Shown piece by piece: positions 57,875 to 62,027 of a stretch of DNA of 64,000 nucleotides. The stretch spans positions 343,398 to 407,397 of the forward strand of contig CP066688.1 of NCBI GenBank assembly GCA_016432425.1, given 5' to 3'. The notes below the pieces were generated by a model, which saw only the letters and a program-made list of their open reading frames with translations, had not been told where the DNA came from and made no database searches. The DNA is from Candidatus Daviesbacteria bacterium. GTDB lineage: Bacteria > Patescibacteriota > Microgenomatia > Daviesbacterales > UBA10151. Position 1 is the first letter of the stretch. Every line of letters begins with the position of its first letter. A program made the translations under genes and the position numbers.

Positions 57875-57947
57875 GCGCCTGTAGCTTAATGGATAGAGCA
57901 TTGGATTGCGGATCCAAAGGTTGTGGGTTCGACTCCCGCCGGGCGCG
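57875..57947 (+). tRNA. tRNA-Arg (anticodon GCG)
   Basis: Acceptor GCGCCTG/CGGGCGC, anticodon stem TTGGA/TCCAA loop TTGCGGA, T-arm GTGGG-TTCGACT-CCCGC. Confidence 0.75.
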
Positions 57948-57952
57948 CTCAA

Positions 57953-58034: not shown

Positions 58035-58109
58035 CCGCTAGAGAGGTTCGTTCATAGTATCCTTTGGATGCTATGCTTACTTGTTAACATCCTCCTCCCA
58101 CCGCCTGTC

Positions 58110-58466
58110 TCATTCCCAGGAGACTTGTTGGATGTTGGCGCTTTCCAGATTATTCATCCCTAAGTAATTCATCACTGCATTTTTGGCCACTTCCTGGTCA
58201 TAGGGTTTACAGGAAAAGATATCCACCAAAACTTGTTTGTGGTCAGTAAAAGTATGGATGGAAATGTGAGAAAAATCAATGATGACAAAGCCGGACAGCC
58301 CGGGGTTTTCCGGAATACCGGAGGTGATTACCGGCCCTTTTAAAACAGTCATACCAATAGTACCAGGGAGAGTGTTTAAAAAGGTGTTTAATTTTTCCTC
58401 ATCAGAAAGGACAGAATCAGGCACATTATTAACGTCAATAATTATATGAAACCGACCGGCAGCCAT
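58110..58466 (-). CDS. speH: pyruvoyl-dependent decarboxylase of the SpeH family (S-adenosylmethionine decarboxylase proenzyme-like)
   Basis: IIDFSHISIHTFTD…VDIFSCK matching SpeH self-cleavage/core motif (ESHxxxHTWPE…DxFTCG). Confidence 0.65.
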   Translation of the reverse strand: MAAGRFHIIIDVNNVPDSVLSDEEKLNTFLNTLPGTIGMTVLKGPVITSGIPENPGLSGFVIIDFSHISIHTFTDHKQVLVDIFSCKPYDQEVAKNAVMNYLGMNNLESANIQQVSWE

Positions 58467-58600
58467 CGCATAAATACATAGTAAAATTACTATGTATATT
58501 GAGTATTGGAATATTTTTTATCATTTGTCAACCCCATTACTTTAAATCTGTTAAGCAAGCTTGCCTGTTTGCTGGGCAAAGGGTAAAATCAGTTAATCTT

Positions 58601-58673
58601 GCGCCTGTAGCTTAATGGATAGAGCATTGGATTCCGGATCCAAAGGTTGGAGGTTCGAATCCTCTCAGGCGCG
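58601..58673 (+). tRNA. tRNA-Arg (anticodon CCG)
   Basis: First 33 nt identical to tRNA-Arg(GCG) copy; anticodon loop TTCCGGA; T-arm GGAGG-TTCGAAT-CCTCT; acceptor GCGCCTG/CAGGCGC. Confidence 0.75.
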
Positions 58674-58895
58674 CATAGTCTCGTCCTTTCGGGAGGGGTG
58701 AAAGTATCCTCCTTCGTTTGAAAACTTCAGCGGGACAGGCCTTACTGCTAGGGAGCCCTTCGACTTCGCTCAGGTCATCGACTCTGAGGCTTTCAGCCTC
58801 ATCGCTCAGACTCGAAGAGGTAAACTATTTTGGTGATTCACTTTGGCCATAGGGATCGCAATTTTACCCTTAATTTTTATGCTATTATTTGATGT

Positions 58896-59225
58896 ATGGC
58901 TTGGAAAGTGAAATTCTTTCAAACTGCAAGAGGTAATTTTCCAGTAAAGGAATTTATGCAGGATCAGGATAAGACAACGTATATGAAACTTATCCATGCA
59001 ATAGAACTTTTAGAAAGTGGTGGTCCTTATTTAAAACCTCCCTACATAAAAAAACTTAAAGATAAGTTATATGAACTTCGGATATCTGGAAAAGTCGCCA
59101 CTAGAATCTTTTATACTGTCGTCAACGGAGAATATTACTTACTGCATGCCTTCAAAAAGAAAAGTCAAAAAACTCCCAGTAAGGAATTTAAAATAGCCCT
59201 TGACAGAATGAGAGAGATAGTATAG
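58896..59225 (+). CDS. higB: type II toxin HigB/RelE-ParE superfamily (Gp49-like)
   Basis: WKVKFFQTARGNFPVKEFM…YELRISGKVATRIFYTVVNGEYYLLHAFKKKSQKTP pattern of HigB/Gp49 toxins; toxin-first order. Confidence 0.65.
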   Translation: MAWKVKFFQTARGNFPVKEFMQDQDKTTYMKLIHAIELLESGGPYLKPPYIKKLKDKLYELRISGKVATRIFYTVVNGEYYLLHAFKKKSQKTPSKEFKIALDRMREIV

Positions 59226-59281
59226 CATATATGCTATAATTTAATCGACGGGAGGAAGATTAAATTTCAAGCTTTGCTTAT

Positions 59282-59578
59282 ATGATTAAACCTAAGAATA
59301 GAAAACATTTAGATTTTTCCGTGTGGAAAAAAGAGGTATTGAAAGATCCAGAACTGAGGGTAGAATATAACCGCCTGCAGCCAGAATATGCTGTCATTCA
59401 AGCTATACTTGATGCGAGGATTAAAAAGGGAGTAACCCAAAAAGAACTGGCTCAAAGGATTGGCACCAAACAATCAGTCATTTCAAGACTCGAGTCCGGC
59501 CATGCTAATCCATCAGTCGCCTTCTTAAAAAAATTAGCTCAGGCTTTAAATTCTCACTTGGAAATCAGGTTTAGATAA
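59282..59578 (+). CDS. higA: HTH XRE-family antitoxin HigA
   Basis: …ARIKKGVTQKELAQRIGTKQSVISRLESGHANPSVAFLKKLAQAL helix-turn-helix. Confidence 0.7.
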   Translation: MIKPKNRKHLDFSVWKKEVLKDPELRVEYNRLQPEYAVIQAILDARIKKGVTQKELAQRIGTKQSVISRLESGHANPSVAFLKKLAQALNSHLEIRFR

Positions 59579-59753
59579 TAAAAATTACTAAAGAATAATC
59601 TAATATGCATACTTATACATTTTTTAGACCTAAAGCATAAGCAGAGCTTGATTTCTCGCAAGCTCGAAATTAGACTAAATCTGGTAATAGGCCGTTAGAC
59701 AGGAACAATCTTATGAATTCTGGCAGTCTGGCTAATATCACGTCAGGCGCGCT

Positions 59754-59969
59754 TTAAGCTTTTTTAACTTGCCTTTGGAAGAATTTAAGATAAACAGCCG
59801 GTAAAATACCGGCAGAGTTAATAACAAGCAGGGCAATAAACCAGTTGCGTTGGTTATTCCTGGCTGCATGCCACATACCAATCCCACGCAAAATTACATC
59901 TACAATACCCAGTAAAACAATTAAGAAATTAAATTGTCCCAAGTCCCAGTTATAAATTCCCTGTCCCAT
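59754..59969 (-). CDS. small membrane protein
   Basis: 71 aa, two hydrophobic helices. Confidence 0.3.
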   Translation of the reverse strand: MGQGIYNWDLGQFNFLIVLLGIVDVILRGIGMWHAARNNQRNWFIALLVINSAGILPAVYLKFFQRQVKKA

Positions 59970-60057
59970 ATTAACAGTATAACAAATTTGAGCGAAGAGG
60001 GAGGGATGTTCGCCTTTGGCGTAGCATAGTCTAGCGACTATGAACGAACCTACTTAG

Positions 60058-60141
60058 CGGAGGAGGTGGGATTCGAACCCACGTGAGCTTGCGCTCGTAC
60101 GCTTTCCAAGCGTATGGAATGAACCGCTATCCGACTCCTCC
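60058..60141 (-). tRNA. tRNA-Ser (anticodon GGA)
   Basis: Minus-strand fold: acceptor GGAGGAG/CTCCTCC, anticodon stem TACGC/GCGTA loop TTGGAAA, variable-arm GAGC-GCAA-GCTC, T-arm GTGGG-TTCGAAT-CCCAC. Confidence 0.8.
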
Positions 60142-60236: not shown

Positions 60237-62027
60237 TTGGATGACTGTTTAACTATGGATGATATCGAATTAATCAAACAAAAGATTAATATTGTTGATC
60301 TTGCTCAAGAGTATTTACCCTTAAAAAAATCCGGCATTAATTTTAAAGCCAATTGTCCTTTCCATAACGAAAAAACTCCCTCCTTTTTTATCTCTCCCGA
60401 ACGGGGAATTTTCCGCTGTTTTGGCTGTGGCAAATCCGGAGATATTTTTACTTTTTTAATGGAAAAAGAAGGTTGGGAATTTAAGGAAGCACTAGAAGTT
60501 TTAGCCAAACGGGCCGGAGTGATTTTAAAAAAAACTGCCCACAAAAAGGATACTAAAGATAAATTATATGAGCTCAATCTCAAAGCCCAGGAATTTTTCC
60601 ATTACCTGCTGCTCAAACATTCTTTGGGTAAAAACGCCGCTGAGTATTTAAAAAAACGGGGTCTAACTGATGAGTCAATGACCCAGTTTCAATTGGGTTA
60701 TGCCCCTAATTCTTGGGATTCCCTGACCAAGTTTTTGGGCAAAAAAGGCTTTAGCGTAGCAGAAATTATTGAAAGCGGCCTGGGAGTAGTTTCCCAAAAT
60801 GGCTGCTATGATCGTTTCCGGGGCCGTGTTATTTTCCCCCTGATTGACACCAGAGACAGAACAGTGGGTTTTGCCGGACGGATTATTTACCAGGGTGAGC
60901 CTAAATATATTAACAACCCTCAAACCCCAATTTTTGATAAAAGTAATTTTCTGTTTGGTTTAAATAAAGCCAAATCTGCTATTAAATCAGCTGATATGGC
61001 AGTTTTAGTGGAGGGAGAGATGGATGTGATTTTGTCTCATCAGGCCGGCATCAAAAACATGGTGGCTTCTAAAGGAACAGCTCTAACCGGCGGGCAGTTG
61101 GATTTAATTAAAAAATATACCAGCAACTTATCCTTAGGGTTTGATATGGACTTAGCCGGGGATAGCGCCTCCCGCCGGGGGATTGAACTGGCAGATAAAA
61201 TGGGATTAAACATTAAAGTGGTGGAATTACCCTCAGGTAAAGATGCAGCCGAGTTGGCCAGTCAAGATGCCCCGGCGCTAGAGCAAGCCATAACCCAAGC
61301 TCTTCCCGTCTATGATTATTACCTTAACTCAGTCAGCAAAAGATTTAATTTAACAGACCCCAGTTCACTTAAAAAAATTGGCGAGGAGCTAGTCCCTATT
61401 TGGTCCAAAATTAATGATGATATTGTCCGGGAACATTATATCCAAAAATTGGCTGCCCTCCTGCGGGTGGATGAGGTGCTTATTAGAAACAGGGTTGAAA
61501 AAGAAAAATCTGCACCTGTGCCCAATTTTCAACAGGCGCTAAAACAAACCAAAAAAGACGACCGACTCTCCACTCTCTCCCGCCGCAGCTTGCTGGAAGA
61601 ATATCTGATGTCGCTCTTGCTACATATTCCCGCTGATTTAGTCTTTGTCCCCCAATTTCCGGAGACCCTATTTTTAGAAGAAAAATGGCGGGAACTTTAT
61701 GTACTTTTGGTATTATATTTAGACTCGATTTCTTTCAAAGGCCGCGCCTTTGACATTAATGAATTCCTCAAAGGAGTACCAAGAGAGCTGGTAGAAGAAG
61801 TGGATAGGCTGTATTTGGTAGAAATAGATGAGCGTTTCCAAAATTCCCGCCATTGGCAAGAGGAATTGGAAGTGGTAGTATCACAGCTTAAAAAGGAGTT
61901 GGTTAAAGCTTCGCTGGAGCGGTTGTCTTTGGAGATTAAAAATGCGGAAAGCTTTGGTAAGATAGAGTTAGTGGGAACTTTGACTAAAAGATTTAGAGAC
62001 TTATCAGTAAAACTAAAAAATCTCTAG
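60237..62027 (+). CDS. dnaG: DNA primase
   Basis: Zinc-binding [42 protein letters not shown]…. Confidence 0.9.

Follow-up and report, generated by a model that had tools for sequence, protein, structure and literature searches.

A higBA cassette at the 3′ end of tRNA-Arg(CCG) in a Daviesbacteria genome as a possible remnant of a tRNA-targeted element

A small toxin-antitoxin (TA) islet in a genome of Candidatus Daviesbacteria (GenBank assembly GCA_016432425.1, contig CP066688.1) raises the question of how it came to lie beside a tRNA gene. The islet is found at 58675-59742 of the window, the whole 64-kb stretch of DNA that we analysed (overall GC 0.41). It spans 1.07 kb, holds higB and higA as its sole open reading frames (ORFs), starts directly after tRNA-Arg(CCG) and ends at a second copy of the last 10 nt of that tRNA. 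We found that it carries a truncated copy of a mobile cassette, and we give an even chance to the islet being the remnant of an element that recombined with tRNA 3′ ends, with the repeat as the crossover scar. Related loci are given below by L numbers.

ARAGORN, the Rfam tRNA model and a count of exact matches confirmed the tRNA-Arg(CCG) and both repeat positions that an earlier, sequence-only reading of the stretch had given (Table 1). The repeat, TCAGGCGCGC, occurs in only two exact copies in the 64 kb when both strands are counted, and the DUF5652 stop codon lies 1 nt beyond the end of the distal one. A first-order Markov model predicts 3e-4 occurrences per 2 kb and 0.01 per 64 kb of one strand. 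Because the repeat is exact, unique in the window and so rarely expected, we consider it real and its chance origin unlikely. The earlier claim to this effect thus stands, though not overwhelmingly, since a looser test, which counted the recurrence within 3 kb downstream of any segment of 10 nt or more taken from the final 25 nt of the tRNA, gave p = 0.023. Like a tRNA island, the islet abuts a tRNA 3′ end, has a direct repeat at its far boundary and varies among relatives. An integrase, as expected of a tRNA-targeted integrative element, is missing, only higB and higA being present between the repeats.

Pfam and PDB matches bore out that the repeats enclose a toxin-first pair of HigB (Gp49-like) and HigA (XRE-type helix-turn-helix, HTH). 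HigB scored 81.2 bits against PF05973 (cut-off 23.9) and covered 89 of the 90 profile positions. Its best solved relative was 6af3_A ('HigB toxin', E 1.6e-9, residues 5-102) and that of HigA was 6af3_B ('HigA antitoxin', E 1e-6), which are two chains of one HigB-HigA complex. The toxin gene lies upstream of the XRE-HTH antitoxin gene on the same strand, a pairing kept in all cassette copies, and at the sequence level both proteins fit the HigBA family. Homologues of HigB were detected 622 times, mostly in Microgenomates. Between higB and its L009 copy, the differences by codon position were 12, 5 and 36, a third-position bias which indicates that higB is under purifying selection.

We compared six copies of the cassette, that of the window and five others at unrelated loci, so that its further contexts number at least five. 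In L009 and L010 (HigB 86% identical) the cassette lies between a tRNA-Cys/cysteinyl-tRNA synthetase (CysRS) pair and a 56-aa ORF, in L011-L018 (85%) between a 288-aa ORF and Obg, and in L020-L029 (72%) downstream of an IS256-type transposase, with two differing downstream contexts; the HigB of L019 is 86% identical. HigA is 90-92% identical to that of L009, L011 and L019. By blastn, the window DNA was similar to the other cassettes over 58874-59573 (76-78% identity) and over parts of the GC-rich stretch, and the cassette with leader and tail showed 76-84% DNA identity at unrelated Daviesbacteria loci. In alignments, conservation extended in every copy to the sequence ahead of higB and to some 110-170 nt past the end of higA. 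Between L009 and L011, the cassette DNA is 84% identical over 833 nt, whereas the neighbouring CysRS proteins are 37% identical, demonstrating that the higBA cassette is clearly mobile among Daviesbacteria. One identical HigB protein was moreover found in two contexts, which diverge right after the tail end GTCACAA (…GGGTCACAA). Since the window contains no homologue of any housekeeping gene from the cassette-bearing loci, this benchmark of divergence is not direct for the window copy. Scans of viral contigs with a single HigB protein and with a HigB alignment yielded no relatives, and the pattern CCTTACTGTTAGGGAG gave chance matches in coding sequence only.

The neighbourhoods of the cassettes showed some recurring genes. 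A gene of ~56 aa without a Pfam match recurs near cassettes (L009 1821-2051 and 6847-7077; L011 2797-3016); a recent duplication was rejected for the two L009 copies, which are 83%-identical paralogues. The ORFs of ~288 aa near cassettes (L001, L009, L011) were rejected as one family, being mutually unrelated. In L020-L022 and L029, IS256-family (Transposase_mut) ORFs in two overlapping frames end ~80 nt before the RNA-like element described below, and the contigs break inside these ORFs, suggesting a multicopy insertion sequence (IS).

The place that the islet occupies is itself variable. A protein from a metagenome-assembled genome of Candidatus Daviesbacteria shows 100% identity to the DnaG of the window, with the next relatives at 82-84% and all others at 68% or less. 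The closest relative with usable flanks, the groundwater contig L001 (DnaG 84% identical), shows the order AdoMet_dc (S-adenosylmethionine decarboxylase-like), tRNA-Arg(CCG), slot, DUF5652, tRNA-Ser(GGA) and DnaG, as in the window. The slot of L001 (1229-2239) is filled by a 286-aa ORF, unrelated and on the opposite strand, for which no match was found in Pfam, NCBIfam or PADLOC. The alignment of flanks that the sequence-only reading had proposed thus gave shared flanks around different cargo, indicating that the slot is variable. By blastn, the window and L001 are homologous up to the exact 3′ end of the tRNA (58674; L001 1228) and again from 59749 (L001 2240), a position inside the distal repeat; the matches of L008 to the window were the same as those of L001. 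In L001, AGGCGCG still stands immediately ahead of the DUF5652 stop codon even though the tRNA of that contig ends in CAAGCGCGC, and the distal copy of the repeat therefore seems to be older than the split of the window and L001 lineages. We rejected the L001 spacer as a remnant of a cassette tail (local alignment against five tails, p at least 0.19). The order in L003-L006 is tRNA-Arg(CCG), NUDIX, FtsJ and then DUF5652. L041 (AdoMet_dc 83% identical) carries NUDIX and a methyltransferase and no tRNA-Arg, and in L038 (AdoMet_dc 78% identical) AdoMet_dc is directly beside tRNA-Ser(GGA) and DnaG, the whole segment from tRNA-Arg(CCG) to DUF5652 being absent. The slot is part of a rearrangement-prone tRNA cluster. 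No relatives were found in the species-representative genome collection by DnaG peptides or a degenerate tRNA-Arg(CCG) pattern, exact-sequence look-ups of HigB, DUF5652 and AdoMet_dc returned no record, and a metagenome scan by the tRNA pattern returned L008 and L007 alone, the latter too short as well as too distant.

The relation of the repeat to the cassette was seen in the tails. The distal repeat sits exactly at the end of the conserved cassette tail, and the alignment of the window tail (AATATCACGTCAGGCGCGC) with that of L009 (AATATCCCGTGAGGCTCAC) continues through the repeat. The tail end of L020, AGCCGGGTCAC, matches the 3′ end of the Daviesbacteria tRNA-Lys(TTT), AGCCGGCTCAC, at 10 of 11 positions; that of L021, AGCGGGGTCAC, matches it at 9 of 11. 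The L009 tail end GGCTCAC equals the last 7 nt of a tRNA-Lys gene 5.3 kb upstream on the same strand, and L011 and L019 likewise have a tRNA-Lys gene upstream on the same strand, at 2.3 and 3.5 kb, respectively. We then ranked the match of the local tRNA 3′ end to the tail-end segment among its matches to all other segments of the locus, which gave 0.003 for the window and 0.015 for L009. The resemblance of tail ends to tRNA 3′ ends, tRNA-Lys-like elsewhere and exact for tRNA-Arg here, is suggestive at most. A decayed tRNA as the source of the whole tail was unsupported: the best Smith-Waterman p was 0.013, uncorrected over 20 comparisons, and the tRNA model gave no match at E ≤ 10 on two tails. 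Flanking direct repeats of at least 8 nt were present at none of the other cassettes.

What lies between the tRNA and higB had been described as a GC-rich, hairpin-containing stretch. It is indeed GC-rich (58675-58895, GC 0.45-0.535 against 0.41 for the window) and has a hairpin at 58785-58801; what it actually represents is a conserved RNA-like element in truncated form, into which a 45-nt insertion is nested. An unusually stable structure was rejected, as the stretch folds no better than shuffles (z = +0.6 and +0.4). The element, about 95-290 nt in size, precedes higBA in the five other cassette copies. Their upstream region opens with a -10 box (5 of 6 copies, three of them with a TG extension) 3-7 nt before the conserved start ACCGAATGATC, and the L036 copy also has a TTGACA -35 box. 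The conserved blocks then follow in the order ACCGAATGATC, GGTGAAAG, CCTT…AGGG, GATTCATCT and GGCCACAGGGATCGAA. In L009, L011 and L020, a GC-rich hairpin and a T-run come next, which look like an intrinsic terminator, followed by TTTATGCTAATAT, an extended -10 box ending 7 nt before the higB ATG. A candidate small RNA transcript would start at ACCGAAUGAUC and end at the terminator hairpin. In minimum free energy and RNAalifold folds, GATCYYNGTGG pairs with CCACARRGATC as a long closing stem (P1), which is 96-100% paired; only one pair changed on both sides, and shuffles do equally well. The covariation support is weak, and we therefore name it an RNA-like element, a candidate small RNA gene.

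In the window copy, the blocks GGTGAAAG (58697), CCTTACTGCTAGGG (58740) and GGCCATAGGGATCG (58845) are retained. Missing from it are the promoter, the terminator hairpin downstream, and the 5′ ACCGAATGATC block together with the 5′ strand of P1. The covariance model R1 found all cassette copies and two stand-alone copies. One, L036 10515-10608 (-), lies on a prophage-like IMG/VR contig with a large serine recombinase adjoining a tRNA; it overlaps, at the 3′ end, an ORF that is DUF3800-like by its N-terminal motif only, and the contig also has an XRE/ImmA-like pair. The other, L020 2928-3001 (+), is a minimal form of 74 nt, located at the 3′ end of a brnA-like gene and next to BrnT. Both stand-alone copies carry their own promoter. 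Rfam 15 gave no match for the element in the window at E ≤ 1, no relevant match on the best copy, L036, at E ≤ 10, and none on five loci at gathering thresholds. The 45-nt hairpin insertion resembles an intergenic repeat at L011 8707-8762 (blastn, 79% over 58 nt). Short GC-rich hairpin repeats of this kind are dispersed in Daviesbacteria intergenic DNA (L011 8700-8900; L009 and L019 leaders), enter the RNA-like element at differing points and behave like repetitive extragenic palindromic (REP) or miniature inverted-repeat transposable element (MITE) types; examples are TCGACTCTGAGG…CCTCAG…ACTCGAAGAG, GCCTCGCCCTTTGGGCGGG and CACTTCGGCAAG/CTCAGTGCAAGC.

The signals around the two genes are also shared. 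The extended -10 box TGCTATTAT (promoter region TGCTAATAT) ends 7 nt ahead of the higB ATG, implying that the higBA mRNA would be leaderless. The palindrome across the higB stop codon, TATAGCATATATGCTATA, is a candidate HigA operator. In the other cassettes higA starts right after it; in the window, a 43-nt insertion containing a hairpin and a GGGAGG Shine-Dalgarno-like sequence stands between them. A promoter-like site, TTGACA-17-TAGCAT, was noted at 59200-59228.

Table 1. Features of the islet and its host flanks (window coordinates)
Feature	Position	Strand	Evidence or remark
AdoMet decarboxylase-like gene (AdoMet_dc), left host flank	58110..58466	-	Pfam PF02675, E 3.7e-20; syntenic in L001, L038, L041
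tRNA-Arg(CCG), intact	58601..58674	+	ARAGORN; Rfam tRNA model 58601-58673, 72.5 bits; 92% identical to L001 orthologue
Proximal repeat copy TCAGGCGCGC	58665..58674	+	Acceptor 3′ strand, discriminator base and one further base
RNA-like element, 5′-truncated copy	58675..58868	+	Alignments; covariance model R1, 120 bits
GC-rich hairpin insertion, 45 nt, window-specific, nested in RNA-like element	58765..58809	+	Insert state in model alignment; core 58785-58801
Extended -10 box TGCTATTAT, conserved	58880..58888	+	Block TTTATGCTA..ATTTGAT.TATGGC in all five cassettes
higB, toxin gene, Gp49/HigB family, RelE/ParE superfamily, intact, 109 aa	58896..59225	+	PF05973, E 5.9e-23
Perfect 18-bp palindrome TATAGCATATATGCTATA across higB stop codon	59221..59238	+	Conserved in all cassettes
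Insertion of 43 nt, window-specific, palindrome to higA start	59239..59281	+	Junction comparison
higA, antitoxin gene, XRE-type HTH, intact, 98 aa	59282..59578	+	HTH_3 PF01381, E 3.7e-17
Conserved cassette tail, with window-specific insertion of ~45 nt	59579..59742	+	Alignments with L009, L011, L020, L021
Distal repeat copy TCAGGCGCGC	59743..59752	+	Where the cassette tail stops and L001 homology resumes (59749)
DUF5652 gene, right host flank, convergent	59754..59969	-	PF18893, E 5.8e-21; syntenic in L001, L003

We propose that 58675-59742 is a horizontally acquired, 5′-truncated copy of a higBA cassette circulating among Daviesbacteria, whose full form would comprise a promoter and small RNA-like element, an intrinsic terminator, the leaderless higB-higA operon and the conserved tail. 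The 10-bp repeat would most likely be the attL/attR core left by recombination targeting the tRNA 3′ end; the cassette family would usually recombine with tRNA-Lys 3′ ends and here with tRNA-Arg(CCG). A later deletion would have removed the DNA from the tRNA to the middle of the RNA-like element, leaving a decayed, integrase-less remnant equivalent to a cis-mobilizable element (CIME). The decay of tRNA-integrated elements into integrase-less CIMEs flanked by attachment (att) sites is a described pathway, in which new elements can accrete at a retained att site (PMC5704250); such accretion would explain the differing L001 cargo within the same boundaries. An empty junction would read …CCTCTCAGGCGCGCTTTAAGC…, the tRNA being followed directly by T and the DUF5652 stop codon, and a circular or excised junction would read …AATATCACGTCAGGCGCGCATAGTCTCG… (tail-TCAGGCGCGC-ATAGTCTCG). 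By analogy with known systems, HigB would be a ribosome-dependent mRNA endonuclease, while HigA would neutralise HigB and repress the operon, so that loss of the islet would be costly to the cell.

The acquired and variable nature of the islet, the repeat at the tail end and the tRNA-like tail ends elsewhere agree with the earlier proposal of a tRNA-targeted remnant that lost its integrase. That proposal is partly supported, and a number of results weigh against it. We detected an integrase or recombinase in none of the six cassette copies, nor in or near the islet, and integrase, recombinase and transposase genes are absent next to five of the six copies. In the window, tblastn with two serine recombinases and IS256 transposase fragments gave no match, and ten further window ORFs showed no recombinase domain. 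No intact parent or autonomous element with the same att site was found, the viral contig HigB scans included. The earlier reading had suggested looking for an empty site, in which tRNA-Arg is followed directly by DUF5652; none was seen in the four relatives L001, L003, L038 and L041. Ten bp is short for a tRNA att core, and 7 of the 10 repeat bases are already found in the tail of L009, a cassette without a neighbouring tRNA-Arg. The rank test was not significant in L011 (0.11) or L019 (0.34). The homology boundaries with L001 are weak evidence, expected at the tRNA end and the gene end anyway because intergenic DNA no longer aligns at such divergence; another intergenic spacer, 58532-58600, is likewise unalignable between the two. 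Finally, the left junction is a truncation of the cassette and no natural element end: it falls within the conserved RNA-like element, so that the promoter and the 5′ strand of the closing stem are lost. Given the missing integrase, the islet should be called a remnant or CIME-like islet rather than an integrative element.

Several of these points would be accommodated by a route that involves no site-specific integration, namely homologous recombination through conserved flanks, or illegitimate or microhomology joining, into a fast-evolving intergenic slot. We regard this as the main rival, less probable than the remnant; the repeat would then be a microhomology, or in part a coincidence on a tail that already reads T.AGGC.C.C. 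The seven shared bases at the homologous L009 tail position, the left junction that truncates the RNA-like element, the lack of an integrase in every cassette copy and the proneness of the tRNA cluster to rearrangement, its gene content differing in each of the relatives examined, are all in its favour, as is the loose chance test, which for one tRNA gives a p of only 0.023. On the other hand, the low Markov expectation for an exact 10-mer (3e-4 per 2 kb) argues against it, it leaves the likeness between tail ends and tRNA 3′ ends in L009, L020 and L021 unexplained, and the distal AGGCGCG is kept in L001 with different cargo.

An ancestral higBA at this place, inherited vertically and lost or replaced in the relatives, with the repeat unrelated to its origin, fits the data poorly and is improbable. 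The absence of an empty site speaks for it, as do both flanks and the distal AGGCGCG that L001 and the window have in common. Against this, all four relatives with the neighbourhood have other content or nothing in the slot, the L001 spacer shows no detectable homology to cassette tails, and at unrelated loci there are copies of HigB and HigA with 86-92% identity in genomes whose adjacent housekeeping genes have diverged much further. These identity values already suggest that a HigBA phylogeny would disagree with the species tree. Equally poor in fit, and the least probable, is a non-autonomous transposon moved by an IS256-type transposase, with the repeat as a target-site duplication: IS256-family elements do make 8-9-bp duplications and their ORFs are found immediately ahead of the cassette in L020-L022 and L029, but the insert ends at 58675 and 59742 lack terminal inverted repeats, the left end is a truncation, no direct repeats of at least 8 nt flank other cassettes and tblastn found no IS256-like or serine-recombinase homologue in the window, so that an IS-type transposon or a MITE was rejected for want of terminal inverted repeats and flanking duplications.

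As a TA module, the islet belongs with the HigB-HigA type II systems, of which higBA of Proteus vulgaris Rts1 is the classic example. With the solved pair (6af3) it shares the toxin-first order, a Gp49/HigB toxin of ~110 aa and an XRE-HTH antitoxin of ~100 aa. It differs in that the window proteins are of low identity to solved members, the operon is apparently leaderless, the 18-bp palindrome lies at the higB/higA junction and not only upstream, and the cassette adds a conserved upstream RNA-like element and a conserved tail. The operon palindrome is consistent with the autoregulation by HigA described for other HigBA systems (PMC6987408).

As a genomic islet, it resembles the CIMEs and decayed elements found at tRNA 3′ ends in streptococci alongside integrative and conjugative elements (ICE) and integrative mobilizable elements (IME), for example at a tRNA-Lys site (PMC5704250). 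The tRNA abutment, the direct repeat, the lack of integration or transfer genes and cargo that differs among relatives are common to both; the differences are that no related autonomous element with an integrase and the same att site was found, the repeat is only 10 bp and one end is truncated. The host here is a bacterium of the candidate phyla radiation (CPR), and we found no characterised elements of this type from CPR bacteria in the papers retrieved. Integrons carry small promoter-bearing TA cassettes as well, such as higBA of the Vibrio superintegron. A promoter-bearing TA unit of ~1 kb in many contexts is the likeness to such chromosomal integron cassettes, whereas here there is no cassette array and no integron integrase among the ORFs examined, with no dedicated attC or IntI search made. 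HigBA systems have been noted before in Patescibacteria (PMC13059738).

Further observations concern the surrounding tRNA cluster. The tRNA-Arg genes at 57875-57948 (GCG) and 58601-58674 (CCG) are 89% identical paralogues 726 bp apart, with tRNA-Ser(CGA) and the AdoMet_dc gene between them; the three tRNAs are contiguous in L003, and AdoMet_dc therefore appears to have been inserted into the cluster in the lineage of the window. A conserved element of ~70 nt directly follows tRNA-Ser(CGA) (58038-58107, +) and recurs inverted after tRNA-Ser(GGA) (59989-60056, reverse complement). It reads AGGTTCG, then TTCATAGT…hairpins…, then AACATCC(C/T)TCC…CCGC, and resembles another T-arm and acceptor 3′ strand of tRNA-Ser, interrupted by a ~45-nt insert; it is found without a tRNA in L041 (about 375-470). 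As 30-nt inverted repeats of 87% complementarity, the two copies in the window enclose a 2-kb segment with AdoMet_dc, tRNA-Arg(CCG), higBA and DUF5652. The strand of tRNA-Ser(GGA) relative to dnaG is opposite in L001 (2506-2593) to that in the window (60057-60141), L003 and L038; in the closest relative, the tRNA gene is locally inverted. In L003-L006 (DnaG 67% identical), a block at about 12950-18150 in L003 starts at tRNA-Asn directly after rpoD and contains a large serine recombinase, a GP3_package-like gene and small ORFs, followed by a type I restriction-modification system. It is probably a prophage or island at a tRNA-Asn site, and in the genome of the window this site would fall just past the window end. 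As called mechanically, the DnaG ORF of the window (60237-62027) starts at TTG 60237 and encodes 596 aa; its 100%-identical counterpart in the database is 590 aa long, which agrees with a start at the ATG at 60255.

By itself, a TA islet beside a tRNA is routine, and the islet is of an ordinary kind. The finding shows that small TA cassettes are transferred horizontally between CPR genomes of very small size. It also marks the tRNA cluster beside dnaG-rpoD as the site of a variable slot, and gives a hint that these TA cassettes travel with a terminus like a tRNA 3′ end. The less ordinary item is the RNA-like element, which is promoter-bearing, absent from Rfam and associated with higBA in several Daviesbacteria, and which also stands alone in a prophage-like region and near a brnTA pair, associating it with mobile and TA contexts. 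It is a long shot that the RNA-like element, higBA and the tail together make up an undescribed, integrase-less mobile cassette of CPR bacteria that moves between tRNA 3′ ends, mostly of tRNA-Lys and here of tRNA-Arg, with a structured RNA as its functional partner. If this were true, the structured RNA may act in targeting, toxin regulation or defence, and would not be a passenger.

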